Part shown: one piece after another, positions 14,929-47,464 of the stretch
Position numbering within the stretch: the first letter of the stretch is position 1
Layout of the letters: every line of letters starts with the position of its first letter
Sequence record: PP971806.1
Reading direction: 5' to 3' (one strand)
DNA length: 50,368 bases
Origin: Escherichia phage GaoY1-9D
Notes under the pieces: generated by a model
Seen by the model: only the letters and a program-made list of their open reading frames with translations
The model's database searches: none
Told to the model about the DNA's origin: nothing
Program-made: the position numbers and the translations under genes

Positions 14929-14942
14929 AAAGGGCGATCCGG

Positions 14943-15239: not shown

Positions 15240-15241
15240 TA

Positions 15242-18280: not shown

Positions 18281-18283
18281 TAA

Positions 18284-18631
18284 ATGGCCCTAGACGTTTT
18301 CAAGTGGTGCGTACAGGTTCAGGATGGTGGCGGTGTGATGACCGTCACCAACAATGACAGGCAGGTGCAGTTTGGTAACGGATTCCGCCAGGTTGCATCG
18401 TCTGGCTATAACACTGAGCGACGAGAGTACGCAATAAGTTACGTTGGCAAGGACTGGAAAGAAGTGCGCGAATTTTTGCGATCGCACAGACTGAAAGCCT
18501 TTGCCTTTACCCCACCGGAGGACAAGATCGGCGTCTTCCTATTGAAGCCTGACACGCTGAATACTCAGCCAATCGGTCGAGGCCTTCTTGTCGTAAAATG
18601 CACCATTGTAGAAGCCTTCACAGCGGTGTAG
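18284..18631 (+). CDS. minor tail protein (M-like)
   Basis: 115 aa directly after tape measure. Confidence 0.6.
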   Translation: MALDVFKWCVQVQDGGGVMTVTNNDRQVQFGNGFRQVASSGYNTERREYAISYVGKDWKEVREFLRSHRLKAFAFTPPEDKIGVFLLKPDTLNTQPIGRGLLVVKCTIVEAFTAV

Positions 18632-18635
18632 AATA

Positions 18636-18660
18636 AAGCCTCCTAACGGGGGCTTTTTTA
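18636..18660 (+). terminator. intrinsic terminator-like hairpin
   Basis: GC hairpin then T6. Confidence 0.5.
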
Positions 18661-18674
18661 TTGGAGGTAATCCC

Positions 18675-19421: not shown

Positions 19422-20143
19422 TTAACGGCAAAATTAAGATGGCAATCTTCGAACATGCAAAATCAGTTTACCCCAATGAATGTTGCGGGGTGGTTACTCA
19501 GAAAGGCCGAGTGCAAAAATACTGGCCTATTGACAACGTTCACTCAGAGCCGGAAAAAGGTTTTCAGCTTCATTCGGTACAATACGCCTGCATTGAGGAT
19601 GACGCAGACCTAACCACGATCGCTATCGTTCATAGTCACACTGGCGACGGGGCGACCACTTTACCAAGCGCTCACGACCTTTGCGTATTGAATGAGATGG
19701 AATTGCCATGGGTGATTGTAAGTCTGCCAGAAGGTGACATGAGAATCGTTCATCCAGAAGCCATGCCGCTGATTGGTAGGCCCTGGTCGCTTGGCTCATT
19801 CGATTGTTGGGGTCTGGTTATGGCGTGGCACAAAGAGCAAGGCGTGATCCTGAATGACTTCCGAAAGCCTTACGAATGGTGGAAGCCTGAGTATGGCGAG
19901 AATCTATACCAGGATAACTACATCAAAGAGGGATTCGTTGAAACAGGAAAAGATCCTGAACCTGGTGACATGGTAATCATGAAACTACAGGCCGAAGTAT
20001 GGAATCATGCGGGAATTTACCTTGGAAACAATCAACTTCTTCACCACGCCTTCGGTAAGCTGTCAAAGACGGATATTTACTCAGGCTGGTTCCAGGATCA
20101 TACAGTAATGGTTTGTAGGCATAAGGAGTTAGAGAAATGTTAA
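19418..20143 (+). CDS. tail assembly protein (K-like, JAB/MPN plus NlpC/P60-like)
   Basis: motif HSHTGDGATTLPSAHD; position after L. Confidence 0.7.
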   Translation: MINGKIKMAIFEHAKSVYPNECCGVVTQKGRVQKYWPIDNVHSEPEKGFQLHSVQYACIEDDADLTTIAIVHSHTGDGATTLPSAHDLCVLNEMELPWVIVSLPEGDMRIVHPEAMPLIGRPWSLGSFDCWGLVMAWHKEQGVILNDFRKPYEWWKPEYGENLYQDNYIKEGFVETGKDPEPGDMVIMKLQAEVWNHAGIYLGNNQLLHHAFGKLSKTDIYSGWFQDHTVMVCRHKELEKC

Positions 20144-20730
20144 AAACGATCAAGCTATCCGGCTCGTTGGGCCGTCGATTCGGTGTTTTCCATAAGTTCG
20201 ACGTTGACTCATACCCCGAAGCAATTCGGGCTTTATCATCCCAGGTGGAAGGGTTTAAGGAGTTCATGCAGAGTGAGATCGGCTCACGTATGCACTTCGC
20301 AGTATTCGTTGACGGAAAGAATGTAGGCCAGCATGACGAGGCGGCATTCGTTTGTGCTAAAGAGGTCCGCATTATTCCGATCCCTACTGGATCAAAAAAC
20401 GGCGGGATGTTCCAGATTGTTGTTGGCGCTGTAATGATGGTTGCGGCATTCTACACAGGCGGCGCATCACTGGCGCTAATGGGTACATTCGCAACATCAG
20501 CATTCATGATGGGCGGCGCGATGGTTCTCGGCGGCGTAATGCAGATGATTTCACCGCAGCAAGGCGGCTCAAAGATGGAGGTTCAGAGCAGCAAGAACAA
20601 GCCTTCATATGCGTTCGGTGGTGCAGTTAACACAACAGCAGCCGGAAACCCGATCCCTGTACCTTATGGGTATCGAACTGTTGGTGGGGCGACATTCTCC
20701 GCCTATAGCGTCGCAGAAGATATGTCATAA
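20137..20730 (+). CDS. tail assembly protein (I-like)
   Basis: 197 aa with Gly/Ala/Met-rich hydrophobic segment; position before J. Confidence 0.55.
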   Translation: MLKTIKLSGSLGRRFGVFHKFDVDSYPEAIRALSSQVEGFKEFMQSEIGSRMHFAVFVDGKNVGQHDEAAFVCAKEVRIIPIPTGSKNGGMFQIVVGAVMMVAAFYTGGASLALMGTFATSAFMMGGAMVLGGVMQMISPQQGGSKMEVQSSKNKPSYAFGGAVNTTAAGNPIPVPYGYRTVGGATFSAYSVAEDMS

Positions 20731-20735
20731 CTTAA

Positions 20736-20760
20736 GACCCGCCTTGCGCGGGTTTTTTTG
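20736..20760 (+). terminator. intrinsic terminator
   Basis: hairpin ACCCGC-CTTG-CGCGGGT then T7. Confidence 0.65.
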
Positions 20761-20807
20761 CGCCTGTATAATGAAACCTCTATAAATCGCACGAAAGGCT
20801 AAACATC

Positions 20808-23800
20808 ATGATTAAAAATAGTGTAGTGACTGGCCGGAAGGGTGGAAGCAGTAAGCCGCATACCCCACAGGAGATGGAAGATAACCTGATCTCAATCAAC
20901 AAGATTAAGGTTTTGCTCGCTGTTAGTGATGGCGAGGTTGACGCGAATTTCTCATTAAAGGACTTATATCTTAATGATGTTCCTGTAATTGCACCTTCCG
21001 GCGAGGTTAACTATGAAGGAGTAACGGCTGAGTTCAGACCTGGTACGCAGGCACAGGACTACATCAAAGGATTTAACGACACGGCTGCTGAGTTCACTGT
21101 AGGTCGTGAACTGAAAACAACGACGCCTTACGTGATTTCAGTAACAAACAAACAGCTTTCCGCTGTTCGCGTAAAAATCCTGATGCCTCGCGGCGTTACC
21201 ACGAAAGAAAACGGCGACATGGTTGGCGTGGTCGTGAAGTGGGCCGTAGATATGGCGGTTGATGGAGGGAGCTACCAGGAGGTTTTATCTGACGTCATCG
21301 ATGGTAAGACGATTAGCGGATATGACAAGACAAAGCGTATTGACTTGCCGTCGTTTAATAGCCAAGTCCTGCTTCGGGTTCGTCGTGTTACTCCTGATTC
21401 GGATAATGCAAGAGTTGTTGACGCGATCAACATTCAGTCATATGCGGAAGTTATTGACGCTAAATTCCGTTATCCTCTGACTGGTCTTGTTTACGTTGAG
21501 TTTAACAGTGAGCTTTTCCCGCAGATCCCAAGCATTAGCACAAAAAAGAAATGGAAGTTGATTAACGTTCCGAGCAACTACAACCCAGAGCTACGTGAAT
21601 ATAGCGGCACATGGGATGGGAGTTTTAAAAAAGCATGGTCAAATAATCCGGCGTGGGTGCTTTATGATTTGATCACCAATCAGAGATACGGGCTCGACCA
21701 AAGAGAGTTGGGGATCGCCGTTGATAAGTGGTCGCTATATGATGCTGGTCAATACTGCGATCAGAAGGTTCCTGACGGTCACGGAGGGTTGGAGCCTCGC
21801 TACCTTTGCGATGTGGTAATCCAATCTCAGGTTGATGCTTACAATCTGGTTCGAGATATTTGCTCAATCTTCCGAGGAATGAGCTTCTGGAACGGCGAGA
21901 GCCTTTCAATTGTCATCGACCGACCTAGAGAGGCGTCGTATATTTTCACTAACGATAACGTCGTTGATGGCTCATTTGCCTATACGTTCGCAAGTGAAAA
22001 AAGCATGTACACAACCTGCAACGTCACGTTCGACGACGAGCAGAACATGTACAGCCAGGACATTGAGGGGGTATTCGACCTTAACGCCTCATTACGCTTC
22101 GGTCATAATCCGACAAGCATCACGGCGATCGGGTGTACTCGACGCAGTGAAGCGAATCGACGGGGCCGTTGGGTTCTCAAAACAAACCTTCGCAGCACGA
22201 CGGTGAGTTTTGCTACTGGCCTTGAGGGTATGATTCCGATGATTGGCGACGTGGTAGCAATCGCTGATAACTTCTGGTCAAGTAACCTGACGCTTTCGTT
22301 ATCAGGTCGTGTGATGGAAGTGTCAGGCCTGCAAGTGTTCACACACTTTAAGGTCGATGCGCGCGCTGGTGATTTCATTATCGTGAACAAGGCTGACGGA
22401 AATCCGGTGCGCCGGACGATTTCAAAAGTTTCTGCGGACGGGAAAACCATTGAGCTTAACGTTGGATTCGGTTTTGATGTTCAACCCAACACAGTGTTCG
22501 CAATCGACCGCACTGATGTGGCCTTGCAGCAATACGTTGTAACCGGAATCACGAAGGGCGACGGAGACGATGAGTTCACGTACAGCATTACTGCAGTTGA
22601 ATACGATCCGAACAAATACGACGAGATTGACTACGGCGTAAATATTGATGACCGACCAACCAGTATTGTAGATCCTGACAACATGCAGCCACCTAAAAAT
22701 ATCAAGGTGTCTTCATATTCAAGGATTGTCCAAGGAATGAGCGTAGAAACTATGGTCATCTCATGGGACAAAGTTCAGTACGCTAGCAAGTACGATGTGC
22801 AGTGGCGCAAGGACAATGGCAACTGGATGAACGTACCGCGAACAGCAAACAAAGAAGTCGAGGTTGAAGGGATTTATGCAGGCAATTATCACGTACGCGT
22901 AAGGAGCATCTCAAGAGGCGAAAATGCGTCTCCATGGTCTGAGGTTGTGAGCGTTGGATTGACGGGCAAGATTGGGAGGCCAGATAAACCAACAGTCATA
23001 ACTGCATCTGACGATCAGGTATTTGGTATCAGGGTTAAATGGGGATTCCCTGAAGGCTCTGGAGATACCGCGTACACTGAGTTGCAGCAGATACCAGATA
23101 ATGGAGCCGGAGGTCACACAGGCGAGGAGAATGCAAGCCTGTTAACAATGATACCATACCCTCAGTACGAGTACTGGCACTCTACACTACCGGCAGGATA
23201 TGTGAACTGGTACAGGGCAAGATTGGTAGACAGGATTGGTAACGCCTCTGACTGGTCTGACATTGTTCGCGGAATGGCAAGCGATGACGTTGAGTCAATA
23301 ATTGGAGAAATAAAGGTTGATATCGAGAATTCCGAGGGGTTTAAGTACCTACAGCAGAACGCCATTGAGTCAAACGGAGCTATTCAGGCGCAGGCGGAAT
23401 CAATTCTTGAAAACGCACTTGCAAACGACACGGACGTGCGACGAATGACCAAGGAAAACGGCAAGCGTAAGGCTGAATACGTTCAGGCGGTGAATCTTAT
23501 TGCTGATGAAACTCAGGCTCGCGTAGAGGCTCTCACGCAGCTTAAAGCACAGATTGATGATGAGGTTGTAGCTTCCATAACTGAAGTTCAGACGGCACTA
23601 GCCACCGAAACGGAAGCTAGGACTACTGCCGACACTGCTTTAAGCGCTCAGATTGGCGACACGCAGGCCGCACTGAATGAAAAACTTGACTCATGGGTAG
23701 ATGCAGAATCAGCTGGCGCTCAGTACGGCGTTAAATTGGGCCTCAAATACAATGGGGTTGAGTATAGTGCAGGGATGAGCATGGAACTTGTTGGCAGCGG

Positions 23801-24188
23801 TGCTGGTGTTAAGAGTCAGTTCATCTTTGACGCAAACAGATTCGCCATCAGTAACGGGATTGGATCTGGTTCCGGTCAGTGGGCATTGCCTTTTGTTGTT
23901 GAGAGCAACCAGGTGTTCATCCAGAGCGCAGTGATCAAGGACGGCTCAATCACTAATGCCAAGATTGGTAACAGGATTCAGTCAAACGACTACGTTACTG
24001 GATCTCAAGGGTGGGCGATTGATAAGTCTGGCACAGCTGAGTTAAGTAACGCAACTGTAAGGGGGAATCTGTACGCAAATAACGGTAACTTCGCATTCAA
24101 TGGAACAAACAATACTGTTCAGATTAACAACAATGGAATTACAGTAAACTTACCGAATGGAGGAAGGGTTGTAGTTGGAGTATGGTAA
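20808..24188 (+). CDS. central tail fiber / host specificity protein (J-like)
   Basis: 1126 aa, last gene of tail tip block. Confidence 0.85.
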   Translation: MIKNSVVTGRKGGSSKPHTPQEMEDNLISINKIKVLLAVSDGEVDANFSLKDLYLNDVPVIAPSGEVNYEGVTAEFRPGTQAQDYIKGFNDTAAEFTVGRELKTTTPYVISVTNKQLSAVRVKILMPRGVTTKENGDMVGVVVKWAVDMAVDGGSYQEVLSDVIDGKTISGYDKTKRIDLPSFNSQVLLRVRRVTPDSDNARVVDAINIQSYAEVIDAKFRYPLTGLVYVEFNSELFPQIPSISTKKKWKLINVPSNYNPELREYSGTWDGSFKKAWSNNPAWVLYDLITNQRYGLDQRELGIAVDKWSLYDAGQYCDQKVPDGHGGLEPRYLCDVVIQSQVDAYNLVRDICSIFRGMSFWNGESLSIVIDRPREASYIFTNDNVVDGSFAYTFASEKSMYTTCNVTFDDEQNMYSQDIEGVFDLNASLRFGHNPTSITAIGCTRRSEANRRGRWVLKTNLRSTTVSFATGLEGMIPMIGDVVAIADNFWSSNLTLSLSGRVMEVSGLQVFTHFKVDARAGDFIIVNKADGNPVRRTISKVSADGKTIELNVGFGFDVQPNTVFAIDRTDVALQQYVVTGITKGDGDDEFTYSITAVEYDPNKYDEIDYGVNIDDRPTSIVDPDNMQPPKNIKVSSYSRIVQGMSVETMVISWDKVQYASKYDVQWRKDNGNWMNVPRTANKEVEVEGIYAGNYHVRVRSISRGENASPWSEVVSVGLTGKIGRPDKPTVITASDDQVFGIRVKWGFPEGSGDTAYTELQQIPDNGAGGHTGEENASLLTMIPYPQYEYWHSTLPAGYVNWYRARLVDRIGNASDWSDIVRGMASDDVESIIGEIKVDIENSEGFKYLQQNAIESNGAIQAQAESILENALANDTDVRRMTKENGKRKAEYVQAVNLIADETQARVEALTQLKAQIDDEVVASITEVQTALATETEARTTADTALSAQIGDTQAALNEKLDSWVDAESAGAQYGVKLGLKYNGVEYSAGMSMELVGSGAGVKSQFIFDANRFAISNGIGSGSGQWALPFVVESNQVFIQSAVIKDGSITNAKIGNRIQSNDYVTGSQGWAIDKSGTAELSNATVRGNLYANNGNFAFNGTNNTVQINNNGITVNLPNGGRVVVGVW

Positions 24189-24193
24189 TAGAT

Positions 24194-24222
24194 AAAGCCC
24201 CTTAATTGGGGCTTTTCTTTTA
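24194..24222. terminator. bidirectional intrinsic terminator
   Basis: hairpin AAGCCCC-TTAATT-GGGGCTT flanked by A-run and T-run; convergent genes either side. Confidence 0.65.
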
Positions 24223-25421: not shown

Positions 25422-25505
25422 TTTGTTTTCCTTAGTAAGTATTTTTCGTTTCGATGAAGTAACTATACATGCAACTATCGTCGGAGTCTTTAACTATTCG
25501 TGCTA
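25422..25505 (-). promoter_or_regulatory. intergenic cassette copy (minus orientation)
   Basis: reverse complement reads TAGCACGAATAGTTAAA ... GTATAGTTA ... CATCGAAACGAAAAAT. Confidence 0.5.
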
Positions 25506-27751: not shown

Positions 27752-28201
27752 ATGCCACACGTAATCACTGGACAGATCCGCAAAGCACCATTCACCAAAG
27801 AAGGAAGTAACAATAATGGTCGCTGGAAAATGTACGCCGTCGAACTGTCAGAGCGTATGAAGATTCGCAATCAACAGGGCGAGGATGAGACGGTTTACAG
27901 TAACTACCGCGCTACGTTCTTCGCAAAAGAAAACGTTATGCAGTGGTATGATGAAGCGTTCCAGGAAGGTAAGGTTGTATCAATTTCTGCCGACACGCTT
28001 CACTTGGCGTCACGCCAGGGTAATGACGGCACTGTTTATGTAACCGCAGAGATGATCCGGCCTCAGTTGCAATTCAGCCAGCGTGAGCCATCACAGCAGG
28101 GCCAAGGCCAGCAGCAACAACGTCAGCAGCCTCAGCAGCAACAACGCCAGCAGCAGCAACCTAATCAATCAATGCAATTCGACGATGACATTCCATTCTA
28201 A
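27752..28201 (+). CDS. ssb: single-stranded DNA-binding protein
   Basis: OB-fold-like N-terminal region, Gln-rich linker, C-terminal FDDDIPF. Confidence 0.7.
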   Translation: MPHVITGQIRKAPFTKEGSNNNGRWKMYAVELSERMKIRNQQGEDETVYSNYRATFFAKENVMQWYDEAFQEGKVVSISADTLHLASRQGNDGTVYVTAEMIRPQLQFSQREPSQQGQGQQQQRQQPQQQQRQQQQPNQSMQFDDDIPF

Positions 28202-30405: not shown

Positions 30406-30440
30406 TAGCACGAATTGCTAAAGCGCAGTATAGCATTACT
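30406..30440. promoter_or_regulatory. cassette-like dyad copy without downstream gene (orientation ambiguous)
   Basis: TAGCACGAATTGCTAAA 30406-30422 then GCAGTATAGCAT; followed by terminator. Confidence 0.35.
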
Positions 30441-31472: not shown

Positions 31473-31946
31473 TCATTCTTTAGCTTTTCGTGCTGCTTCG
31501 TTTGCCGCTTTAATTTTTCGCCATGATCGACACTCTGGTTTAGTGGCTAGTTCAGCCTCAGTGACGACGCGCAGCATGTGACGCTTTTTGCAACGCAGCG
31601 TCAGCGGCTTACCGTTCCCATCGAATTGCAGATCAGGTCGGCAGAATGTAGCGCGGAATCCTTCGCCAGTTCGCTTATATCGGTTGTGCGCCAGTTGAGC
31701 GCCGCGAGCCGACATCATTCCTCGTTTAAACCATTCCTCAACGGCCTGGCGACTAACCTTCAGTTGTTTTGCGATATTGGCCTTCGTTCCGTAGAAGTCG
31801 AGAACCATTTCCAGTCGCGCCCGAAGCCCGGCCTTTACTTCATCTTTTAAAACGTAGTAACCTGAGGGTCGTTTCCGTTGCTTTTTGTCTTCAGTTCGGA
31901 CTGTTCCGTTGTTGCCGTTAATGGTTCGCTTGTCGACTGCATTCAT
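31473..31946 (-). CDS. HTH DNA-binding protein (putative transcriptional regulator)
   Basis: helix-turn-helix-like segment TKANIAKQLKVSRQAVEEWFKRG; basic protein. Confidence 0.5.
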   Translation of the reverse strand: MNAVDKRTINGNNGTVRTEDKKQRKRPSGYYVLKDEVKAGLRARLEMVLDFYGTKANIAKQLKVSRQAVEEWFKRGMMSARGAQLAHNRYKRTGEGFRATFCRPDLQFDGNGKPLTLRCKKRHMLRVVTEAELATKPECRSWRKIKAANEAARKAKE

Positions 31947-35057: not shown

Positions 35058-35115
35058 AGAGGAATCAGTGAGGTGGTGTATTATCACCTCATCGAAACGA
35101 AGTAACCAACCAAGG
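35042..35115 (+). promoter_or_regulatory. intergenic cassette copy
   Basis: TAGCACGAATTGCTAAA; hairpin GAGGTG/CACCTC with TATTAT; CATCGAAACGAAG. Confidence 0.6.
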
Positions 35116-38949: not shown

Positions 38950-39435
38950 ATGAAGCAGAAGTTGGTCATTAGCGCAGCGACGGCTGCGGCAATATACATT
39001 GCAGCACCGCTCATTGAGCTCGTTGAGGGTGTGGAGAACAAGCCTTACATGGACATTGCCGGAATCCCTACGGTGTGTTCCGGTATTACTGGCCCCGACG
39101 TAGTTTGGGGTAAAACTTACAGTAACAGGGAGTGCCGGAACCTGCTGGAGAAACACATTCAGATTCATGCTAAGTATGTTCAGAATGCAGTCACCTACCA
39201 AATCTCACCGCAAACAAGGGCGGCTTTAATCAGCTTTAGCTACAATGTTGGCGGCTCAGCGATGAGGAAATCTACTGCCGTTAAGTTAATTAACCAGGGT
39301 AAGATTGAGCATGGTTGCAAGGCTCTCGGGATGTGGACAAAGGCTACCGTTAATGGCAAGAAGGTTGTCGTTAAGGGGTTAGTGAATCGCAGGAATGAGG
39401 AGATTAAGTTATGTTTAAGTGGATTGCGGCGTTAG
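38950..39435 (+). CDS. endolysin (lysozyme, T4-lysozyme-like fold)
   Basis: Glu ... Asp spacing in ELVEGVENKPYMDIAG typical of GH24 lysozymes. Confidence 0.75.
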   Translation: MKQKLVISAATAAAIYIAAPLIELVEGVENKPYMDIAGIPTVCSGITGPDVVWGKTYSNRECRNLLEKHIQIHAKYVQNAVTYQISPQTRAALISFSYNVGGSAMRKSTAVKLINQGKIEHGCKALGMWTKATVNGKKVVVKGLVNRRNEEIKLCLSGLRR

Positions 39436-39800
39436 TAATGTGCATGGCTTTATCTGGGTGCTCAGCAACATCTGCGCTGACTGGTTTAATTGGCAGCAAG
39501 CCAGAAATCAGTGCGCAGGCTGGGGCCGAGAACGTGAAGCAAACGGTAGGCGTTACCGGAAAGGTGGATAAGTCAAACGACAACGACACCACTATCAAAG
39601 ATTCAAAGGTAGGAAAGGTTGATACGTCAAACGGGAAGTCTGTCAGCACCTCAAGCATCAAGGCTGACACCATCATCGCTGATAATATTGAGATCAGGAA
39701 CGATGACTCGAAAGGTAATCTGATTGCCGGACTGGTATTCCTGTTCATTGGCATTCTGATGATTGCTATTTCAATTTGGCTGGAACGACGCAAAAAATAA
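39411..39800 (+). CDS. unimolecular spanin (lipoprotein with C-terminal transmembrane anchor)
   Basis: lipobox LSGC at N-terminus; C-terminal TM LIAGLVFLFIGILMIAISIWL; overlaps endolysin 3' end. Confidence 0.7.
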   Translation: MFKWIAALVMCMALSGCSATSALTGLIGSKPEISAQAGAENVKQTVGVTGKVDKSNDNDTTIKDSKVGKVDTSNGKSVSTSSIKADTIIADNIEIRNDDSKGNLIAGLVFLFIGILMIAISIWLERRKK

Positions 39801-39828
39801 AAGGAGCCGAAAGGCTCCCTTTTTTTAT
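39801..39828 (+). terminator. intrinsic terminator (same hairpin as 10705..10728)
   Basis: hairpin GGAGCC-GAAA-GGCTCC then T8. Confidence 0.7.
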
Positions 39829-39975
39829 CCAAATCTTTGCACCAGTAGCAACAATTCACCTTCATTATTGCACAATGTATGCTCATCACGTCGCCCTGCG
39901 CGCATGGATGAGTTAAGCATTGAAAGAAGGGCTTGGTTAAGACCATCCTCACTGATAGCATTCTCAGAACTGCAT

Positions 39976-40338
39976 CTAATTATCGCGTCGATTACGACCT
40001 GACTTTCCAAATAACTCTCCATCGCTCATCTTCTCTATGTTCATCATCTCCCATGTATAGCGATCACCCTCACCGCCATAGCACTTGAAATGAAATTCAA
40101 ATGGCCTTTTTTGCGCGCCCTTGGACCAGTACCAGTTATTCACGCCGTCAAGGTATCCTTCTGCCATACATCTTGCAATAAACTCCTTTGATGATGATGA
40201 TGCGAAATAGCGAGGAGTCACGCCTGCGGCCTTCGCAAGACGCTCGCACTCCCTGTGCTTGTATATGAATACCGCCAGGTGCTGACGGTTGAATTTTTCA
40301 TAGCCTTCGCAAAAACGGTACAGATCCAGAAGAAACAT
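39976..40338 (-). CDS. hypothetical protein
   Basis: ORF immediately downstream of P-loop protein gene, same strand. Confidence 0.5.
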   Translation of the reverse strand: MFLLDLYRFCEGYEKFNRQHLAVFIYKHRECERLAKAAGVTPRYFASSSSKEFIARCMAEGYLDGVNNWYWSKGAQKRPFEFHFKCYGGEGDRYTWEMMNIEKMSDGELFGKSGRNRRDN

Positions 40339-40341
40339 AAT

Positions 40342-41925
40342 TTACCCCAGCAGTCGCGGATTAATGTAAATTTTATCACCAATCAGGCAAGTGTAGTTTT
40401 TCTCATCCAGCATAGGGATCAGGTGATCTTTGATGCGAGTCATTACACCACTTTGCCCTTCAAAGGGTTTAACCTTACGAGCCGCTTCATATAGGGATCG
40501 GACACCTACAACGCCCTTCCCGTTCTTACCTTGCTTGATCAGAATATCGATCAGCTTATTCATCTCCGCATGGTCGCCAGCATGACCAGCAGCGTTTGCA
40601 GATGACAGATAAGTCTTACTCAGTTCCTGGAACATAATTACCGCTTCCTGCATTGTGTCAAGCTCAATCTCTCTAGACTTCTGCGGACTCCCGCCATTGG
40701 GATTAAACCAGTTACGCACAGTGTGAAGAACAGCAGCGATCCTGATAGCCTGCTTATCGAACTTACCCAGCGCTCCGCGAAGCATTGTGTGTGAATACTT
40801 CCCGCCGTCCGCAAGGTGAGGCTCCATATCCTGACGAGCACGGTTGAGATATTTCATCGCCGACGTGCTCACTGTTAGGTTGACTTCGTGTTCGCTCATG
40901 ATCTCATGGACCAGACGGAAGTAGTCCGCCTTGAGTCCGCCATCAATCGGCTCATATGTTGATTCGCCTTTCTCATCTACGAACACACGCTCACCAAGGA
41001 ATGACTTCTCACGCACAAGCAAGAAACGTTCTGACACACCGATACCACGCGCACCAGCATTCATGATCGCGTTGATTGTTTCATCCTGTGCAATTACAGA
41101 TATGCAGCCCATCGCAATGAAGCTCATGTTATTGTCTGCGTTCGCACGGGCGATAGACACGTTACCAGCATCCCATGCTTTCAGCACAAGCTCGCTGTTC
41201 GTTTTCTTTGAGCCGTCACCATAGGTCATGCCTAACAGTGAGTTCACGCTCGTTGCTTCATCCGAGATCACTGCAAAGTTGCCCTGGCGGTTGTTGATTC
41301 GCGCAAGACCTTCCGGCGTGGTGTCGGATACGGGGAAAACGATGTCACAGAGTCGTTCAAGTTTTTCTTCAAGTTCCTCTTTCTCATCAAACAGAGCCGC
41401 CATATCAGATGGTGATTTCTCCTGCTTCATCTCCTTGGATAGAGCGGAGAGCTTAGCCATAATCTTCTTGCGGTCACGCTTTCGGATCTCGTTGAGTCGC
41501 TCAGTCTCTGCGATCATTGGGGCCAGGGAAAGTGAGTTAATGGCTGATTTACCCGTCGATGGCGGCTGACTGGTTACGACGTACAGCGCGGTCGGCTGTT
41601 GTGTTCCGTGATACTCAACCGTAAATCGGCCCAGCATGGCGGCTGATATGCATCCGAGGAAATGCATGTAAGCGGACGACTCGGGGAACTGAACTGAACG
41701 AGCGGCATTGCTTGACAGCTTACCAACGACATCACAATCGTTACCAAGTGAGATAACCGGATATTTGTCACCGCCTGAGTCAATTTCTGTTGGGGCTTTC
41801 CAGAATGATTGGCTCTGCCTGTATCCGTTCGCATTGATGGCAACGCGCAAAGGTGGCAGGTTATCGGCAGCGGCTACAGCCATGACCTGATCGATTGACA
41901 ATTTATCTTCGTTGAAATCAAACAT
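40342..41925 (-). CDS. P-loop NTPase of unknown role (possible replication initiator or helicase-type ATPase)
   Basis: Walker A QPPSTGKSA; Walker B-like AVISDE; N- and C-terminal modules shared with 46901..47464. Confidence 0.55.
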   Translation of the reverse strand: MFDFNEDKLSIDQVMAVAAADNLPPLRVAINANGYRQSQSFWKAPTEIDSGGDKYPVISLGNDCDVVGKLSSNAARSVQFPESSAYMHFLGCISAAMLGRFTVEYHGTQQPTALYVVTSQPPSTGKSAINSLSLAPMIAETERLNEIRKRDRKKIMAKLSALSKEMKQEKSPSDMAALFDEKEELEEKLERLCDIVFPVSDTTPEGLARINNRQGNFAVISDEATSVNSLLGMTYGDGSKKTNSELVLKAWDAGNVSIARANADNNMSFIAMGCISVIAQDETINAIMNAGARGIGVSERFLLVREKSFLGERVFVDEKGESTYEPIDGGLKADYFRLVHEIMSEHEVNLTVSTSAMKYLNRARQDMEPHLADGGKYSHTMLRGALGKFDKQAIRIAAVLHTVRNWFNPNGGSPQKSREIELDTMQEAVIMFQELSKTYLSSANAAGHAGDHAEMNKLIDILIKQGKNGKGVVGVRSLYEAARKVKPFEGQSGVMTRIKDHLIPMLDEKNYTCLIGDKIYINPRLLG

Positions 41926-41929
41926 TAAA

Positions 41930-41995
41930 ATAACTCCTTAGTTGGTGCGCCAATGTTAACGCACCTATGGTAAAACCGCTTGCCAGAAAATGCTA
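41930..41995 (-). promoter_or_regulatory. degenerate cassette-like element
   Basis: minus strand TAGCATTTTCTGGCAAG then hairpin GGTGCG/CGCACC then RBS AAGGAG. Confidence 0.35.
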
Positions 41996-41996
41996 C

Positions 41997-42346
41997 TTAT
42001 TTATACGCCGCCTCAAATCGATAGGTTCCGCATACTGTTTCGAATCCGACATCATCCGAGCGGTACAGTTGCCAGGCTACGCCGTCGTTGTCGAAGATGT
42101 AACCAGCGTTACTACCGAGTCCTGCGTGCATGTCAACCTGATAGCGTTTACCTTGCGTGAAGTCTTTTTTAACGGAAGACTTGTGATTAATCTTCGTCAC
42201 GTAAAGGGTTTTGGTCTTAATGTATCGGCCATTGACGTCCAGGTTAACCCACTTGCCATCAACCTTGATTTGCTCTACCTCATCTTTCACGCGAGCTTTC
42301 AGAAGGCGGTTATCGGAGGTAACGAAGTTTTTGGTGGTGATTGTCA
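41997..42346 (-). CDS. hypothetical protein
   Basis: internal ATG 42346 with RBS AAGGAAA within track ORF 41997..42458. Confidence 0.45.
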
Positions 42347-42357
42347 TTTTGATTTCC

Positions 42358-42528
42358 TTATTTAGCGTAATTGGTAGAGAATTTAGCGCCAGCAAACTTT
42401 GATGGTTTACGGTTTGCATTGATTGTTTCATAAACCTTCTTAGTATCGCGAGCGTCAATTACCTCAAAAACCATCAAAGCGACCATTGGGAAAACTACTG
42501 CGATAACCATCAAAGTTAAAATAATCAT
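42358..42528 (-). CDS. small membrane protein (56 aa)
   Basis: internal ATG 42528; hydrophobic MIILTLMVIAVVFPMVALMVF. Confidence 0.35.
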   Translation of the reverse strand: MIILTLMVIAVVFPMVALMVFEVIDARDTKKVYETINANRKPSKFAGAKFSTNYAK

Positions 42529-42544
42529 TTTCTCTAGCTCTCGT

Positions 42545-42607
42545 TGTTTCGTTTCGATGGAGTAATAGTATCGCATCCTTGCGATTGTGTTTTAACAAAA
42601 AGTGCCA
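42545..42607 (-). promoter_or_regulatory. intergenic cassette copy (minus orientation)
   Basis: minus strand TGGCACTTTTTGTTAAAA; hairpin ATCGCA/TGCGAT; CATCGAAACGAAAC. Confidence 0.55.
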
Positions 42608-42855
42608 TTTGCTAGTTTGACATATCAATCCAAGAAAATACAAACTAACTCTATTCTAAATCAAACGGTATTGACCTATTGTAAAAGTACATATAACAAT
42701 CATAGTTATGTTTTGGTTGCACCGTCTCAGATAGACACGCCTTTACAGAATCGCGGTCAGATGGATCTACATGCTCAGCCTTAAGTAATGCTAAGATCTG
42801 GTTATAGCGCACCATTAGTTGTACAATTTGCTCCTGCCTCATATTATCTACCCCC

Positions 42856-43086
42856 TTAAAGTTGCTCGGCAATGTAAGAATGACAAGCGCGAAGCTTCAT
42901 TAATGCACTACCTTTCACTTCGCCTACTATGTTCATAACCTCTAATCGATCCTGTGGGTTCATCTTAGCGTGCCAGACATGGTTAGCAAGTTCCAGATTG
43001 CTCATGTTAGGTTCCATCTCAAGCAGCTCTCGCTCGAAGTCTATAACTTCTCTTGCAGCTTCTTTAAAGTTAATCATTTTCTTCAC
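42856..43086 (-). CDS. hypothetical protein
   Basis: ORF with RBS AAGGTG; cassette upstream. Confidence 0.5.
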   Translation of the reverse strand: MKKMINFKEAAREVIDFERELLEMEPNMSNLELANHVWHAKMNPQDRLEVMNIVGEVKGSALMKLRACHSYIAEQL

Positions 43087-43094
43087 CTTTCTTT

Positions 43095-43156
43095 ATTTCG
43101 TTTCGATGGGATGAATATACAGGAAAAGCCCCGAAGGGCTTTAGCAATTCGTGCTA
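43095..43156 (-). promoter_or_regulatory. intergenic cassette copy (minus orientation)
   Basis: minus strand TAGCACGAATTGCTAAA; hairpin AGCCCTTCGGGGCT; TGTATATT; CATCGAAACGAAAT. Confidence 0.6.
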
Positions 43157-43302
43157 TTTCGTGCTTTCTCTATCGCATTTAGCATTGTTTCATGGCTCTC
43201 GAGCAAATCCTCGTTAAACCAATCACCGCATGGCCATCCCTTTCCGCTATAGGCACTAATGACTTCCAGATCGAAGTAGTTTATCTCAGATGGCAGGAGC
43301 AT
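43141..43302 (-). CDS. small hypothetical protein (53 aa) ending NSTNC, translated through the cassette dyad
   Basis: ATG 43302 overlaps upstream stop; RBS GAGGTG; stop TAA inside dyad. Confidence 0.3.
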   Translation of the reverse strand: MLLPSEINYFDLEVISAYSGKGWPCGDWFNEDLLESHETMLNAIEKARNSTNC

Positions 43303-43541
43303 CACTTCACCTCATCAAAAGTTGCAACCCCAGGGATGAACATCCCAACCTTCCAGCCTGCGATAGCAACCCAGCCAGAATCGTGCTTGTGCGGTCGCTC
43401 AGCGCCATTAATCACCCATTCGTTCGGGATTGTCTTACCTTTAATGATTAGAGGCTCAGCGTCGTATACAGAGCCTTTTACGAACGGTGTCAAAACCTTC
43501 TTGTCGGTGCTGGTTATTACGTTAGTGCATCGAATCTTCAT
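43302..43541 (-). CDS. hypothetical protein
   Basis: internal ATG 43541 with RBS GGAG; track ORF 43302..43559. Confidence 0.45.
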   Translation of the reverse strand: MKIRCTNVITSTDKKVLTPFVKGSVYDAEPLIIKGKTIPNEWVINGAERPHKHDSGWVAIAGWKVGMFIPGVATFDEVK

Positions 43542-43542
43542 G

Positions 43543-43926
43543 TTAAACTCCGTAATCAATTTTTACGAGATGGCCATTATAGTAACCAAAGTTTTTAGGT
43601 AAAGCGTCATACTCAAAGAAATCTTTATCAAGTTTCTGCGGCTCATTTGACGCATATGTGTACAACCTCTCTAGCTCAATCCAGAACAAGCCTTTATGAT
43701 TAACTGGTCTTGCTCTGGTCATAACTACAACTAAGCCAAATTTATTTGAATACTTTATTGGACAAAGGAACTTATTGTCATAACCTTTCCATTGCCCTTC
43801 GGTTATGTTGCTTAACATACCTTGAACAAAATTCTTCCATGTGTTTGCTCTCGGTAGCTTTATGGCGTACTTTTTGGTTAAAATAACTAACCTTGTACCT
43901 CCAGATCTAATTATCTTCATTTCCAC
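43543..43926 (-). CDS. minimal protein-kinase-like protein (putative)
   Basis: ordered motifs RSGGTR, YAIK, YDALPKN, KIDYG in 127 aa. Confidence 0.4.
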   Translation of the reverse strand: MEMKIIRSGGTRLVILTKKYAIKLPRANTWKNFVQGMLSNITEGQWKGYDNKFLCPIKYSNKFGLVVVMTRARPVNHKGLFWIELERLYTYASNEPQKLDKDFFEYDALPKNFGYYNGHLVKIDYGV

Positions 43927-43929
43927 CCC

Positions 43930-44145
43930 TTAGAACGGTATTCCGTCATCAAATTTTAAGCGGTAGTCGAAGTCATCCCCGATCCCATCTACTGACTGGT
44001 TGCTTTCGCTTTCCAGATCCATATCCATAACGCCCAACGCGTCATCGAGTTCGATGCATCCGTAAGCAACCTTGAGCGCCCACTCTTCATTAAGTCCGGC
44101 TTCAAGTGCCGCGCGGTGGCGGCTCCAGAAATTATCTTGATGCAC
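43930..44145 (-). CDS. small acidic protein with SSB C-terminal-like tip (FDDGIPF)
   Basis: 71 aa, Asp/Glu-rich, ends KFDDGIPF; compare SSB end QFDDDIPF at 28201. Confidence 0.5.
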   Translation of the reverse strand: MHQDNFWSRHRAALEAGLNEEWALKVAYGCIELDDALGVMDMDLESESNQSVDGIGDDFDYRLKFDDGIPF

Positions 44146-44147
44146 TG

Positions 44148-44372
44148 TTAGCTCCAGGAATTGATGTAAAGTGAGTTATCGTTTAACAGGTTGACCATCT
44201 CGGCGCGGGTAAGGCTACGGATGATTGAGCCTGGATGAGTGCCAACAACGTAGCGGTCGAACTCACGGCGCGTAATGGTGATTTGGCTAACTCCTGCGGC
44301 GCGGTCAAGTTTGATGATTGCGCGGCCTTTGGCTTCGATATGTGCTACTACGTTCTGAGCTTTAACTGACAT
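44148..44372 (-). CDS. hypothetical protein
   Basis: ORF with cassette upstream. Confidence 0.5.
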   Translation of the reverse strand: MSVKAQNVVAHIEAKGRAIIKLDRAAGVSQITITRREFDRYVVGTHPGSIIRSLTRAEMVNLLNDNSLYINSWS

Positions 44373-44389
44373 TTTTACTTCCTCTTGTA

Positions 44390-44452
44390 TACTTCGTTTC
44401 GATGAAATGATTATGCCTCAATCCGTGAGGCTTAGTTTAGCAATTAGTGCTA
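44390..44452 (-). promoter_or_regulatory. intergenic cassette copy (minus orientation)
   Basis: minus strand TAGCACTAATTGCTAAA; hairpin GCCTCACGGATTGAGGC; CATCGAAACGAAG. Confidence 0.6.
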
Positions 44453-44453
44453 T

Positions 44454-44780
44454 TTATGCGATGTCGAACTCTGCCGCGTACGCTTCTTTGATACCCGATT
44501 CACGCATGGTGCGCTTGCTGATTTTGCGCGGGTGACGGTACTGAGCGTTAGGCTTAATCCACCAGAAGCAAGCAGTTTCACGAACGATTTCATAAGTGCT
44601 GTAACGAGTGAAAGTATCGCGCTCTGCGTCAGGTTGGGATACACAAGTCAGGTTCTTAACTTCCGGCTTGATTTCTTCCCAAACGAATGAATCCATACCG
44701 TTAACCTTGCAAGCTACCATCACATATTCAACGCCATTTTCGATTTTGATGATGTCGTTACCGCGATTTTCGTATTTCAT
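44454..44780 (-). CDS. hypothetical protein
   Basis: ORF with cassette upstream. Confidence 0.5.
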   Translation of the reverse strand: MKYENRGNDIIKIENGVEYVMVACKVNGMDSFVWEEIKPEVKNLTCVSQPDAERDTFTRYSTYEIVRETACFWWIKPNAQYRHPRKISKRTMRESGIKEAYAAEFDIA

Positions 44781-44789
44781 TTGCTTTCT

Positions 44790-44857
44790 CTATGTGTCTC
44801 GTTTCGATTAAGTAATAATACCCCATCGTGAGATCTGGCGTTTAGCAATTCGTGCTA
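44790..44857 (-). promoter_or_regulatory. intergenic cassette copy (minus orientation)
   Basis: minus strand TAGCACGAATTGCTAAA; TATTATTACTTAATCGAAACGAGAC. Confidence 0.6.
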
Positions 44858-44859
44858 TT

Positions 44860-45666
44860 TTATATGTCGCTGAAAACTTCACAGCTTTCACTGCAAGATC
44901 CGGTGTCGAATGATTTGGCCCCTCTAACCCTTGAGGCTATCTCATCTCTCGACTGTGGAAACATCTGTATAATGTCACCGATTGAGCGCCTTCCTCTGTA
45001 CATGTCAGATGATGATTCCTTTTTATTGTGCTCACTAATTGTGTCAATGAATAGCTTTGCAAGTTCCGGCTCATCTTTACACGCAAGCGCAATCTTAAGC
45101 TCTGACTTCTTGATGCAGAAAACGCAGTTACCAAGATGCTCATCAATTTCAAGGTCAAATGGCATGTCATGCCAGAAGTCGATAATGTCCTGTTTTTCGA
45201 AATCAGATATGTCAGCAAGGTAACTGAACCCATCGACGGGTTTTAGTCTCTTTGGCTCATCGGCACGAATACCAATCCATCTCTGATAATTACCCTTACC
45301 ATACTTCTCCTCGCAGTACTTCTCGAATGGCTTAGTCTTCATCCTGTTCGTACAGAATGGCCCGCCTTGGTATGGATTTCCGTACTTCCTTAGCATTCTA
45401 ATCCACCCAGTCAGATCATGGTGAATGTCATCGACGCTGACAACTTCGAAAGATGGAGCCCCGCGGAACTTATCGCTGGGCAAACATCTCAGGCAGGTTA
45501 TCGGCCTTGAAAGCATTGATGAGACTTTACGGATAAACTCATATGTCTTCGGATGCTCTGCTCCAGTGTCCATATAAATCACCTCCGCGTCAGGATGAAT
45601 CTTGAGTACCTCAAGTGTCATGTATGCCGAAGTCCTGCCGCCGCTAAAACTAATTACCTGATTCAT
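44860..45666 (-). CDS. PAPS reductase-family PP-loop ATPase
   Basis: PP-loop SFSGGRTSAYM at N-terminus; ATG 45666 with RBS AGGAG. Confidence 0.7.
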   Translation of the reverse strand: MNQVISFSGGRTSAYMTLEVLKIHPDAEVIYMDTGAEHPKTYEFIRKVSSMLSRPITCLRCLPSDKFRGAPSFEVVSVDDIHHDLTGWIRMLRKYGNPYQGGPFCTNRMKTKPFEKYCEEKYGKGNYQRWIGIRADEPKRLKPVDGFSYLADISDFEKQDIIDFWHDMPFDLEIDEHLGNCVFCIKKSELKIALACKDEPELAKLFIDTISEHNKKESSSDMYRGRRSIGDIIQMFPQSRDEIASRVRGAKSFDTGSCSESCEVFSDI

Positions 45667-45744
45667 TTCAACTCCTATTTGTGCGCTAAATAACAACCAG
45701 ATGATAGCAACTAACCCATGAATGGTCATTAGCAAAAAGTGCTA
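45667..45744 (-). promoter_or_regulatory. cassette-like element upstream of PAPS reductase gene
   Basis: minus strand TAGCACTTTTTGCTAAT at 45728-45744. Confidence 0.45.
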
Positions 45745-46373
45745 TTCGTTCGATTTATGGATTGTTGCAGCTATTGCAATGATTCACATGACTATTGCAC
45801 AGATAGCAATATTGCATCTATTGCAATGATGTTTTCTATTGTTGCGAATTGAGCAATGATTCATTGATGGGGGGAATGATGGGGTGATCAAGGATCACCT
45901 GATCGACTGGTAGGATTTTCCCGCCACACGCTTCTAGCGTATACGCGTTATTTATGTTATGCCATGTAGACACACCAGCACTCCGTAGGAATCATGTACG
46001 CATATCACGCTTAATTACGCCATGGTTACATTAAAATATCCTTATATAATAACCATTTATCTATATTATTATTATTAATATATATATATGTAGATAATGT
46101 AGATAGTGGATATGTGATATTGCGATAGTTTTCTATGATATTTTCCTACACCTGTAGGAATATGACGACATTGTAGGAATAAAAGGGCATGTAGGGGCCC
46201 ATTTGCTAAAAATCCTTATCTACAAACTATACGCAGACTTTACATTGAGCTATATCTGGGGCGATTGGTGGAAATATGTAACTAATCAGAAAATTTGCAC
46301 CGATAACACTTGATAACACGTAGATGTGTGATACTATGGAATCATCTTAGCGAAGACCAACCAATCAGGAGTA
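45745..46373. repeat. AT-rich non-coding region with TATTGCAATGAT repeats, GATC-rich palindrome, GTATAC and GTAGGAAT motifs and (TTA)n/(TA)n tract
   Basis: TATTGCAATGAT at about 45772 and 45819; GGTGATCAAGGATCACCTGATC; TGTAGGAAT three times; core related to 25560..25665. Confidence 0.6.
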
Positions 46374-46901
46374 ATGAGTATGTCAGAGCACAAAGAAGCA
46401 GTAAGCCTCGGTGACGTTATCCGCTACATGGCGGAGCAAGCGCTCAAGTCCGAGAACCGCAGCTACCACGTCCCAATCCATCTAATAGCTCGCCAGGTTT
46501 ACGGCCTCACATCTAGTGATATAGGAGGCATAAGTCGTGAGGATCTGGATGTAGGTGGCAAGTACAGTATGGCAAAGCTGAAGGCGTCATATGTCGCCAA
46601 TACGGTAGCCAGGATGCCAGAGATACAGGCGGCAAACGTTCGTGCAAAACTTTCAATTAAGGATGGTGATTTCGGTGATGACGTCGAGGTTCGGTGTGCT
46701 TATCTGTCTTTGGTTGATGGCGCAATCCAGACAGGAAAGCGAGTGAAGGCAAACTGCCAGATTGCAGAGAAGGCTGTGAGCGACTTTAAGGTCAAAATAC
46801 TCAAGCTGATGCCATCCGTGACTAACTTTGAGGGCGATGAGATTACAGGAGCCATCAAGGCAATCAAAATGTACCAGGAAATGATTAGGGAGACGAAATA
46901 A
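46374..46901 (+). CDS. hypothetical protein
   Basis: ATG 46374 with RBS AGGAG; first gene after AT-rich region. Confidence 0.5.
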   Translation: MSMSEHKEAVSLGDVIRYMAEQALKSENRSYHVPIHLIARQVYGLTSSDIGGISREDLDVGGKYSMAKLKASYVANTVARMPEIQAANVRAKLSIKDGDFGDDVEVRCAYLSLVDGAIQTGKRVKANCQIAEKAVSDFKVKILKLMPSVTNFEGDEITGAIKAIKMYQEMIRETK

Positions 46902-47464
46902 TGTGGATGTTTGATTTTAACGAAGAGAAGCTGACAGATGAGCAGATTATGAAGATTGCTACGGAAGATGGGATTCCACCACTACGAGTTGCAATCAATG
47001 CTAACGGATACCGACAGTCACAAAAGTACTGGTGCGAATTAGAAGTTATGCGTCGCGCAAACCTAAATCGTGAACAATGCGTCGTGGTTGAAAAGATCTG
47101 GAAGCAAGCGATAAATGGAAAAGGCGTTGTGGGAGTTCGCTCAACATATGAGGCGATCAGAAAGGTCCAGCCGTTCGTCGAGCGTAATGGAGTAATGAAT
47201 AACCTGATTGACAATATCCTACCATCACTACAGGACGCGGGAATCATTTGCCTTATTGGTGACAAGATATATGCACACCCATACCTGGTGGGCATGTATG
47301 GGAGAGACATCCACAAGTGGTGCGACTCATGGAGATCGGTTGAGCGCAAATCTCATAGCAAATTGCAGGCAAGCTCAGACATGATTCATGGCTATGATGC
47401 CGATGATGTCAGAAAGGCTGTCGAGTTTTATCGGAAAGCTAAATCACTCCTGAACGGTGAATAG
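46901..47464 (+). CDS. hypothetical protein, truncated paralog of the 40342..41925 P-loop protein
   Basis: shares MFDFNE-KL ... PPLRVAINANGYRQSQ and GKGVVGVRS-YEA-RKV-PF ... CLIGDKIY with the 527-aa protein. Confidence 0.55.
   Translation: MWMFDFNEEKLTDEQIMKIATEDGIPPLRVAINANGYRQSQKYWCELEVMRRANLNREQCVVVEKIWKQAINGKGVVGVRSTYEAIRKVQPFVERNGVMNNLIDNILPSLQDAGIICLIGDKIYAHPYLVGMYGRDIHKWCDSWRSVERKSHSKLQASSDMIHGYDADDVRKAVEFYRKAKSLLNGE

Follow-up and report, generated by a model that had tools for sequence, protein, structure and literature searches.

A compact block of small genes, all on the minus strand, adjoins the lysis genes of Escherichia phage GaoY1-9D (PP971806.1), and it raises the question of whether such a locus is an acquired accessory island or a regular part of the phage, and of what the repeated cassette ahead of several of its genes might do. 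We addressed this question in a stretch of 50,368 nt, here called the window, which comes from a T1-like coliphage of the genus Nouzillyvirus (Drexlerviridae). The block, at 39976-45735, had been described in an initial annotation as an accessory island in which nearly every gene has its own cassette promoter. The best explanation that we can offer, with a probability of about 0.58, is that it is a leftward arm of conserved and variable genes, arranged in six units headed by family-wide, marbox-type promoter modules that would be activated by the host. The cassette result outweighs the island question in importance: by every test that we ran on the sequence, the cassette looks like a family-wide promoter module of the class II MarA/SoxS/Rob type.

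The cassette can be found with the string TAGCACNNNTTGCTAA, which, with up to two mismatches, has 20 matches in the window against 1.47 expected, a count reached in none of 100 shuffles. Fifteen of the 20 copies lie outside the block, so that the cassettes cannot serve as its mark, as had been proposed; they occur genome-wide, heading early, replication, recombination, and lysis genes, and are also present in T1, TLS, and Klebsiella phage cp5. An alignment of the 20 window copies with 22 copies from T1 gives, from 5' to 3', an asymmetric box of 18-20 bp (ATAGCAC-NNN-TTGYTAAA(-NN)), 18 bp of unconserved sequence, a -10 hexamer (TAtAnT), a start region (ATCGAAACGAA), a ribosome-binding site, and the ATG. 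The offset of the -10 is exact (18 bp; 31 nt from the GCAC) in 14 of the 20 window copies and deviates by one base in four more, and a TG stands one base upstream of the hexamer in about half of the copies.

The box resembles the marbox of the MarA/SoxS/Rob regulators. Two marbox strings were applied unmodified, GCAnnWWnTGnnAAA (= GCANNWWNTGNNAAA; Grainger laboratory, PMC12052159) and AYnGCACnnWnnRYYAAA (= AYNGCACNNWNNRYYAAA). The first has 18 matches in the window (1.04 expected), 20 in T1, and 14 in the Klebsiella Webervirus cp5, and the second has 17 (0.08 expected), 15, and 12, respectively. The second string is reportedly the older of the two. The variable positions of the phage box (8, 9, 10, and 14) are the degenerate positions of the marbox consensus, and the marbox of the mar operon, as read from the MG1655 genome (ATGCCACGTTTTGCTAAATC), is identical to the phage box at 16 of 18 positions. 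Wherever a copy is followed by a gene, its GCAC end is the upstream one, the same orientation as at micF in MG1655. Class II marboxes are in forward orientation and overlap the -35 region; the micF box is centered at -41.5, and Rob contacts the GCAC at -47 and -45. At micF, nfo, and inaA of MG1655, the best forward box is followed by exactly 18 nt and then by TAGAAT, TATCAT, or TATAGT. Like micF, nfo and inaA are said to be class II promoters.

With these three E. coli promoters, the phage cassettes share a 20-bp asymmetric box in forward orientation (AYnGCACnnWnnRYYAAAYn / GCAnnWWnTGnnAAA), 18 bp from box to -10, a GCAC at about -47 to -44 relative to a predicted start, and the lack of a usable -35. 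They differ in that about 20 near-consensus copies are found on a 50-kb virulent phage, compared with scattered, degenerate sites on the chromosome, and in that the phage cassette has a hairpin in the spacer or around the -10, together with conserved first transcribed bases. The TTGCTA of the box lies 22 bp from the -10 and therefore cannot be a -35. A scan for sigma-70 -35/-10 pairs across 39400-46500 returned 14 sites where 14.0 were expected and caught only one of the six cassettes of the block (cassette A, described below); a canonical sigma-70 promoter reading was rejected on the grounds that the scan showed no enrichment and missed every other cassette. The resemblance to the marbox, in sequence as well as in geometry, is very probably real and non-accidental. 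The box, its orientation, the 18-bp spacing (with the start predicted), and the weak or absent -35 all agree with a class II marbox promoter, and we infer that the cassettes are class II promoters of the MarA/SoxS/Rob type.

The repeat itself is already known. A re-annotation of TLS in 2024 reported a repeat of 21 nt, aaATAGCACnnnTTGnTAAAA, in 21 copies located about 76 nt ahead of start codons, which is also present in T1, Rtp, and Rogue1; its function was left open (stoperator, enhancer site, or UP element), and just three sigma-70-like promoters were listed (PMC11447400). This is the same element, with the same consensus, the same orientation with transcription, and about 20 copies per genome, although no connection was drawn there to a fixed-distance -10, a hairpin, a leader, or the marbox (PMC11447400). 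A full-text search of the open-access literature found nothing linking "marbox" and "bacteriophage," and the literature yielded no transcript start-site data for T1-like phages. The marbox reading therefore appears to be new within the open-access literature that was searched. A homology screen of the six frames of the window with approximate query sequences detected no homolog of MarA, SoxS, or Rob (hmmsearch with filters off, best E 0.9).

A further feature of the cassette is a hairpin, of which the 18-bp spacer usually contains one arm or the whole. Compared with shuffled sequences, the 36 nt that follow the box form more stable folds (mean z -2.5), with 26 of 42 cassettes below -1.64. Among 60 cassettes taken from three phages, the sense strand is the more stable one in 47 (Wilcoxon p 1e-5), and G-U pairs are more frequent in sense (60/522) than in antisense (27/478). 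Because the sense strand is the more stable and has more G-U pairs, the hairpin points to a role in read-through RNA arriving from upstream, which could be termination, processing, or 3'-end protection. The -10 lies within the hairpin loop in many copies, and in the copies of the block the hairpin fills the 18-bp spacer. Downstream, the leader ATCGAAACGA(A), representing the predicted first transcribed bases, is found in many cassettes of GaoY1-9D, T1, and cp5, and further copies of it occur at 2745-2754, 25446-25455, and 35091-35100. Scanning the entire window for Rfam families and tRNAs gave no match, and the leader and hairpin are therefore not a described RNA family. A paper on base-pair distortion by MarA was also considered; it has no bearing on the hairpins.

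Within the block, the six cassette positions given in the initial annotation (41960, 42575, 43125, 44420, 44825, and 45700) were well placed, as a genuine cassette has its -10 hexamer no more than about 7 nt away from each of them. By contrast, the claim that nearly every gene has its own cassette does not hold, as only six of the 13 genes (g1-g13, numbered by increasing coordinate) are directly preceded by one. Gaps of 63-122 nt with one cassette each are present at five gene junctions, and the sixth cassette lies upstream of g13. Gaps of at least 63 nt were found only at cassette sites; the remaining seven junctions measure no more than 13 nt, and the genes there therefore sit in operons. 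By the positions of the cassettes, the 13 genes form six transcription units, namely g13, g12, g11-g10-g9-g8-g7, g6-g5, g4-g3, and g2-g1.

All six cassettes are on the minus strand. Cassette A (45667-45745), which heads g13 alone, has its marbox at 45745-45726, ending in AAT, and an extended -10, TGCTATCAT, with the hexamer at 45706-45701; it also has a -35-like ATGACC at 17 bp and is without the conserved leader. Cassette B (44781-44858) heads g12 alone, with the marbox at 44858-44839, a TATTAT -10 at 44820-44815, and the leader at 44808-44799. Cassette C (44373-44453) precedes the five-gene unit g11-g7 and combines a marbox (44453-44434), a spacer hairpin (gcctca/tgaggc), a CATAAT -10 (44415-44410), and the leader (44403-44394). 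Cassette D (43078-43157), ahead of g6-g5, consists of a marbox at 43157-43138, a terminator-like gccc-ttcg-gggc hairpin followed by TTTT, a TATATT -10 at 43119-43114, and the leader at 43107-43098. In cassette E (42529-42608), ahead of g4-g3, the marbox (42608-42589) is followed by a spacer hairpin (atcgca/tgcgat), a TACTAT -10 (42570-42565), and the leader ATCGAAACGA (42558-42549). Cassette F (41926-41997), ahead of g2-g1, has a degenerate upstream block (TAGCATTTTCTGGCAAG), with 31 nt from GCAT to the TAACAT -10 at 41958-41953, which sits in the loop of a ggtgcg/cgcacc hairpin; its counterpart in T1, at 46157 on the minus strand, is intact.

The cassettes are very tightly packed among the genes. 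The box of cassette D falls wholly within the last six codons of g7 and its stop codon (...N S T N C stop), and in several other cassettes a TAG or TAA of the box region is the stop codon of the upstream gene. When cassettes E and C are read from the other strand, the T-rich complement of the box comes directly after each spacer hairpin, and both were flagged as terminators in the scan (42570-42585 and 44415-44431, plus strand); these two cassettes might also halt antisense transcription.

Elsewhere in the window, 18 of the 20 copies face a downstream gene, and the other two are orphans that face a terminator. The orphan boxes, at 10776-10791 (minus strand) and 30406-30421 (plus strand), run against or between neighboring genes, with a terminator-like hairpin within about 60 nt and no gene in between. 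They are kept at the same map positions in T1 (L004), at 15085 (minus) and 34903 (plus), before the major capsid gene and between the tail-fiber and primase genes, and they may make short antisense RNAs. The structural block on the plus strand at 4700-24200 (about 20 kb, from terminase to tail) has no cassette in sense orientation, and the same is true of 8.4-29.6 kb in T1. Expression of the late genes must therefore depend on read-through or on another type of promoter.

Taken together, a mechanism can be proposed in which a host marbox-binding activator would bring sigma-70 RNA polymerase to the cassettes. The candidate activators would be Rob, which is made constitutively, and MarA and SoxS, which are made under stress. 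Positioned at about -41.5, the activator would take the place of the -35 contact, and transcription would start at the A of ATCGAAACGAA. The hairpin, in RNA reading through from upstream, would serve as a terminator or as a processing/stability signal and so insulate each unit, and the near-identical modules might double as crossover points for gene swapping, which would explain why small variable genes are individually promoted. The dependence of the cassettes on a host activator, taken by itself, seems to us slightly better than an even bet.

A comparison with the middle promoters of T4 is useful here. At those promoters, a MotA box acts together with AsiA ("sigma appropriation"), the box being read by a protein that remodels or occludes region 4 of sigma. 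The phage cassettes would be similar in combining an activator box with a normal -10 while the -35 contact is replaced, by a mechanism that for Rob would be the one described in the literature. In T4, however, both proteins are phage-encoded and the box is near -30, whereas for the cassette a host protein at -41.5 is proposed; we know of no AsiA-like factor for the T1-like cassette system. Only tentatively, at somewhat less than even odds, we suggest that T1-like phages run their whole early and middle program, with about 20 promoters, via host Rob, MarA, and SoxS, as a form of sigma appropriation by host factors.

Several observations weigh against activation by these host proteins. In a Keio single-knockout screen with the T1-like phage LL5, which is more than 90% identical to TLS, the mutants recovered were in lipopolysaccharide genes, tolC, secB, and ppiB, and not in rob, marA, or soxS, meaning that no single activator is essential in LB (lysogeny broth) or rich medium. 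A dependence on activators could be obscured by redundancy of the three paralogs or by basal transcription from the extended -10. In laboratory cultures, little MarA or SoxS is present and most Rob is inactive, and T1-like phages still grow very well. Furthermore, positions 3 (A) and 11 (T) of the box are more conserved than a marbox demands, which hints at an additional or different reader, and the box contains a 5-5-5 pseudo-palindrome (TAGCA/TGCTA) in a family that also conserves a Cro-like helix-turn-helix (HTH) protein. Mosaic junctions at 42359-42363, 43541/43928, and 43270-43286 are located away from cassettes and count against a role of the modules as crossover points.

Such a different reader could be encoded by the phage, most plausibly the Cro-like HTH protein binding as a dimer to TAGCA-N5-TGCTA and serving as global activator, shut-off repressor, or reader of "stoperators," in which case the likeness to the marbox would be convergence. 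The inverted repeat in the box speaks for such a dimer, and the candidate, a protein of 157 aa encoded at 31473-31946 on the minus strand (T1 ST23), has a weak P22_Cro-type HTH (E 1e-4, below the Pfam cut-off) and is conserved at 53% identity in T1 and 65% in cp5. Across genera, the box also varies as little as a co-evolving phage factor would allow, single rob, marA, and soxS knockouts had no effect on a T1-like phage, and a stoperator and an enhancer were among the ideas raised by the TLS authors (PMC11447400). However, conservation of the box is asymmetric: its 3' AAA is near-invariant, whereas the mirrored 5' positions are A/G rather than TTT, and the invariant G of TAGCA is mirrored about equally by C or T, which fits a monomer reading RYYAAA. 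A palindromic operator for a dimer is thus disfavored. The genes closest to the divergent control region, which are presumably expressed before any phage protein is present, are also headed by the box; joint shut-off of early, replication, recombination, and lysis units makes little regulatory sense for a repressor; and there would be no explanation for the class II spacing of exactly 18 bp or for the lack of a -35. We consider a phage-encoded reader unlikely. The Cro-like gene is divergent from a cassette, and its product, of the Cro/YdaS HTH type, is the sole candidate for a phage DNA-binding regulator that was seen.

Still less likely, in our estimation, is that the box has no protein reader at all and that the cassettes are plain, activator-independent promoters with an extended -10, the box being a UP-like contact for the alpha subunit or a recombination linker. 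The TG one base upstream of the -10 in about half of the copies would be in line with this, as would the good growth of the phages when the activators are scarce or inactive, the negative knockout screen, the mosaic junctions at cassette edges, and the comparison of the repeat to UP elements by the TLS authors (PMC11447400). The other half of the copies, though, have neither the TG nor any -35, and the invariant G/C positions of the box (GCAC, TG) differ from the A/T-tract consensus of UP elements. A recombination linker would need neither a fixed 18-bp distance to the -10 nor a fixed orientation, and the match to the marbox amounts to about 22 bits, which makes chance very unlikely even given some 200 candidate transcription-factor motifs. 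Class II marbox-type modules read by a host activator therefore remain our preferred explanation of the cassettes.

We return to the question of the island. The 6.6 kb around the block matches 214 phage records, the top match being Nouzillyvirus vB_EcoM-p111 (95% identity, 83% query coverage). The order of genes in T1 is identical: holin, endolysin, spanin, terminator, and then, on the minus strand, ST10 to ST1, including a DUF3987 "DNA helicase." As initially described, all genes of the block are on the minus strand, between the lysis terminator and the AT-rich region. Its 13 open reading frames (ORFs) fill the block at a coding density of 91%, and GC skew is negative across 40-46 kb. A bidirectional intrinsic terminator at 39799-39822 separates the end of the arm from the spanin gene; it has stems of 10 pairs on the minus strand and 6 pairs on the plus strand, with a T run after each. 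At its opposite end, the block is bordered by a gap of 638 bp (45736-46373) with a GC content of 0.365, falling to 0.169 at 46040-46110. It contains the AT-rich divergent control region and putative origin (45746-46373), with four 26-nt iterons at 45761-45863 and tandem repeats of TGTAGGAATA at 46140-46190. From this layout, between the arm with the DUF3987 gene and a DUF7174 gene, the gap resembles a replication origin, and since the arm adjoins this iteron-containing, AT-rich putative origin, part of it is probably core replication machinery.

The block is therefore the conserved leftward arm of the T1-like family, the counterpart of T1 genes 1-10, and not an inserted island. It is located on the same strand and at the same place, after the spanin gene and terminator, as ST1-ST10 of T1, with which it shares homologs of g1, g2, g3 (in part), g10, and g11. 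The two arms differ in that the places of g4-g9, g12, and the PAPS reductase of GaoY1-9D are taken in T1 by an HNH endonuclease and other small genes. Presence or absence across relatives, which the initial annotation had suggested as a check, gave a mixed result: g1, g2, g3, g10, and g11 are conserved across genera, from GaoY1-9D to T1 and SECphi27, and the other eight of the 13 genes (g4-g9, g12, and g13) vary, each being missing from at least one close relative or rare in the family.

An accessory island for host takeover or anti-defense, whose genes would be individually promoted since they were acquired and act independently, nevertheless has some appeal. Eight of 13 genes are variable or rare; the same variable slots are occupied in relatives by DNA methyltransferases and HNH endonucleases; the homolog of g3 is dispensable and triggers the defense system Mokosh type I; the kinase-like gene g9 is common to unrelated phage families; and the tip of g10, of the SSB (single-stranded DNA-binding protein) type, could engage host DNA-repair proteins. 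These points have to be weighed against the conservation of the arm and of five of its genes from GaoY1-9D to T1 and SECphi27, the occurrence of the DUF3987 gene in 921 records, a normal GC content (0.454 in the block compared with 0.465 in the genome, and thus no foreign composition), and the presence of a cassette before only six of 13 genes, the cassette being a genome-wide type of promoter. In domain, phrog, and PADLOC searches of the 13 arm proteins, none resembled a known anti-defense protein. We regard the island as doubtful, and the term does not suit this arm; a role in host takeover or anti-defense is plausible for the variable genes and g3 but wrong for the arm as a whole.

The mosaic junctions, which were mapped as homology breakpoints against four relatives, may bear on how the variable genes are exchanged. 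Breakpoints coincide with cassette edges at 43074, 43157-43159, 44437, 44455-44458 (in three relatives), and 45701, in addition to those noted above that do not. In this respect, the cassettes are reminiscent of the promoter early stem-loop elements (PeSLs) of T4-type phages (PMC2839356, PMC4122927), which there bring about the shuffling of genes and are likewise short, repeated composites of promoter and stem-loop before small genes in variable regions, and at which indel or replacement junctions between relatives occur, as they do here for some junctions among the four relatives compared. The hairpin z-scores and the anatomy of the cassettes indeed describe a repeated promoter with a stem-loop between genes. 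The parallel is an analogy, as the sequences are unrelated, with a visibly different consensus, and the phage family is another one; the promoters of PeSLs are ordinary early sigma-70 promoters, whereas the promoter half of the phage cassette would be marbox-type, and the phage motif also heads conserved genes.

Among the conserved genes, g1 (39976-40338, minus strand as for all genes of the arm; 120 aa) is a conserved partner of the DUF3987 gene and the homolog of T1 ST10 (phrog_2794, E 1.7e-62), with 59% identity in T1 and 58% in SECphi27. The P-loop ATPase of the initial annotation is g2 (40342-41925; 527 aa), a core family gene encoding a DUF3987 protein (PF13148, E 4.6e-39; phrog_2373, E 1.5e-254), found in 921 phage records, 898 of them at full length, and labeled DNA helicase in relatives. 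Across the AT-rich gap, a 187-aa ORF at 46901-47464 (plus strand; PHROG 7327), also present in p111, encodes a "mini" paralog of this protein in which 42 aa at the N terminus (69% identity, E 1e-19) and 92 aa at the C terminus (45%, E 3e-23) are retained and the whole ATPase core is missing; the paralog may regulate the full-length protein or compete with it. The third gene, g3 (41997-42347; 116 aa; phrog_2684; 812 records), is a homolog of SECphi27 gp13 (128 aa; tblastn, 42% identity, E 1e-18). In SECphi27, gp13 was shown experimentally to trigger Mokosh type I, and a frameshift in gp13 leads to phage escape (preprint supplement), from which it follows that the gp13 gene is dispensable. The link through g3 is to being sensed by a defense system, which is different from countering one. 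The last of the five, g11 (44148-44372; 74 aa; phrog_4344), is the homolog of T1 ST5 and is conserved across genera, with 41% identity to T1 and SECphi27.

The remaining conserved gene, g10 (43930-44145; 71 aa; 331 records), encodes a conserved N-terminal domain, an acidic linker, and an SSB-like C-terminal tip, DDGIPF. Its labeling as an SSB-tip mimic was borne out, since IPF/IPW is invariant in the homologs: I68, P69, and F/W70 show little or no variation, and the linker is variable and either acidic or Cys-rich. Some homologs have a CxC...CxxC insert ahead of the tip; the SECphi27 homolog ends in FPF, and T1 ST6 ends in DDYIPW. A Pfam search of g10 found no SSB/OB match and no OB (oligonucleotide/oligosaccharide-binding) fold. 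The true SSB of the phage is encoded at 27752-28201 (plus strand) and ends in MQFDDDIPF, while g10 ends in KFDDGIPF; judged by its sequence, g10 bears an SSB tip but is not a bacterial SSB. An "SSB-like protein with C-terminal tip" in the DRT10 preprint was dismissed as a parallel, as it concerns an OB-fold protein of another phage.

Of the variable genes, g4 (42358-42528; 56 aa; a small hydrophobic protein), g5 (42651-42842; 63 aa; phrog_18624), and g6 (42856-43077; 73 aa; phrog_10996) are absent from p111, ETEP102, and T1. In contrast, g7 (43141-43302; 53 aa; phrog_4548) is present in p111 and partial in ETEP102, and g8 (43302-43541; 79 aa; phrog_4448) is present in p111, ETEP102, and 50EP and absent from T1. 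The rare gene g12 (44454-44780; 108 aa; phrog_29431) occurs in 29 records. The largest variable gene, g13 (44860-45666; 268 aa), is a sporadic accessory gene whose assignment to the PAPS reductase family was confirmed (NinC-like; PF01507, E 1.6e-8; phrog_33262, E 1.6e-91). In a search of 50,697 phage records, just two of its 542 matching records reach at least 90% identity, and others are in Vibrio, Stx, and Salmonella phages. It also gave the sole PADLOC match of the arm, to the defense-side proteins SspD (E 3.5e-17), BrxP, and DndC.

A minimal protein-kinase-like protein of 125 aa is encoded by g9 (43543-43920), a precise single-gene insertion without a cassette of its own, with junctions at 43541 and 43928. 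It has roughly half the length of the smallest well-known kinases, and homologs of 120-129 aa are found in T1-like, jumbo, Aeromonas, Erwinia, and Ralstonia phages; the 92 records with g9, none above 80% identity, are scattered over unrelated phage families. The residues K20, E40, D104, N109, and D121 are invariant (beta3 Lys, alphaC Glu, catalytic Asp...Asn, and DFG-like Asp). An AlphaFold2 model (pLDDT, the predicted local distance difference test, 87.9) was compared with the PDB by Foldseek, and the top 50 matches were all kinase or aminoglycoside-phosphotransferase folds (probability 0.9-0.98), with E-values of just 2.5e-3 to 2e-2 and TM-scores of about 0.5. The label of a mini kinase-like protein thus stood up, in that the catalytic residues and the modeled structure support a kinase-like fold. 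Sequence searches of the PDB with g2, g9, and g13 returned nothing useful.

T1-like phages rank with the most frequent coliphages and laboratory contaminants. Reading the repeat as a class II marbox offers the first concrete, cheaply testable model of transcription for these phages, and it ties gene expression in a virulent phage to the enteric regulon for multidrug resistance and stress tolerance. If it is true, antibiotics, bile salts, salicylate, or oxidative stress would tune phage growth, which would be relevant to phage therapy combined with antibiotics, and the phage promoters would stay active even with sigma region 4 or host promoters shut down. The cassettes would also represent compact, stress-inducible promoter/insulator parts. 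The arm itself offers tractable small proteins, including a 125-aa kinase-like protein, a non-SSB protein with an SSB tip, and a homolog of a Mokosh trigger, and the repeated modules with their RNA hairpin would be the crossover points at which individually promoted accessory genes are shuffled.

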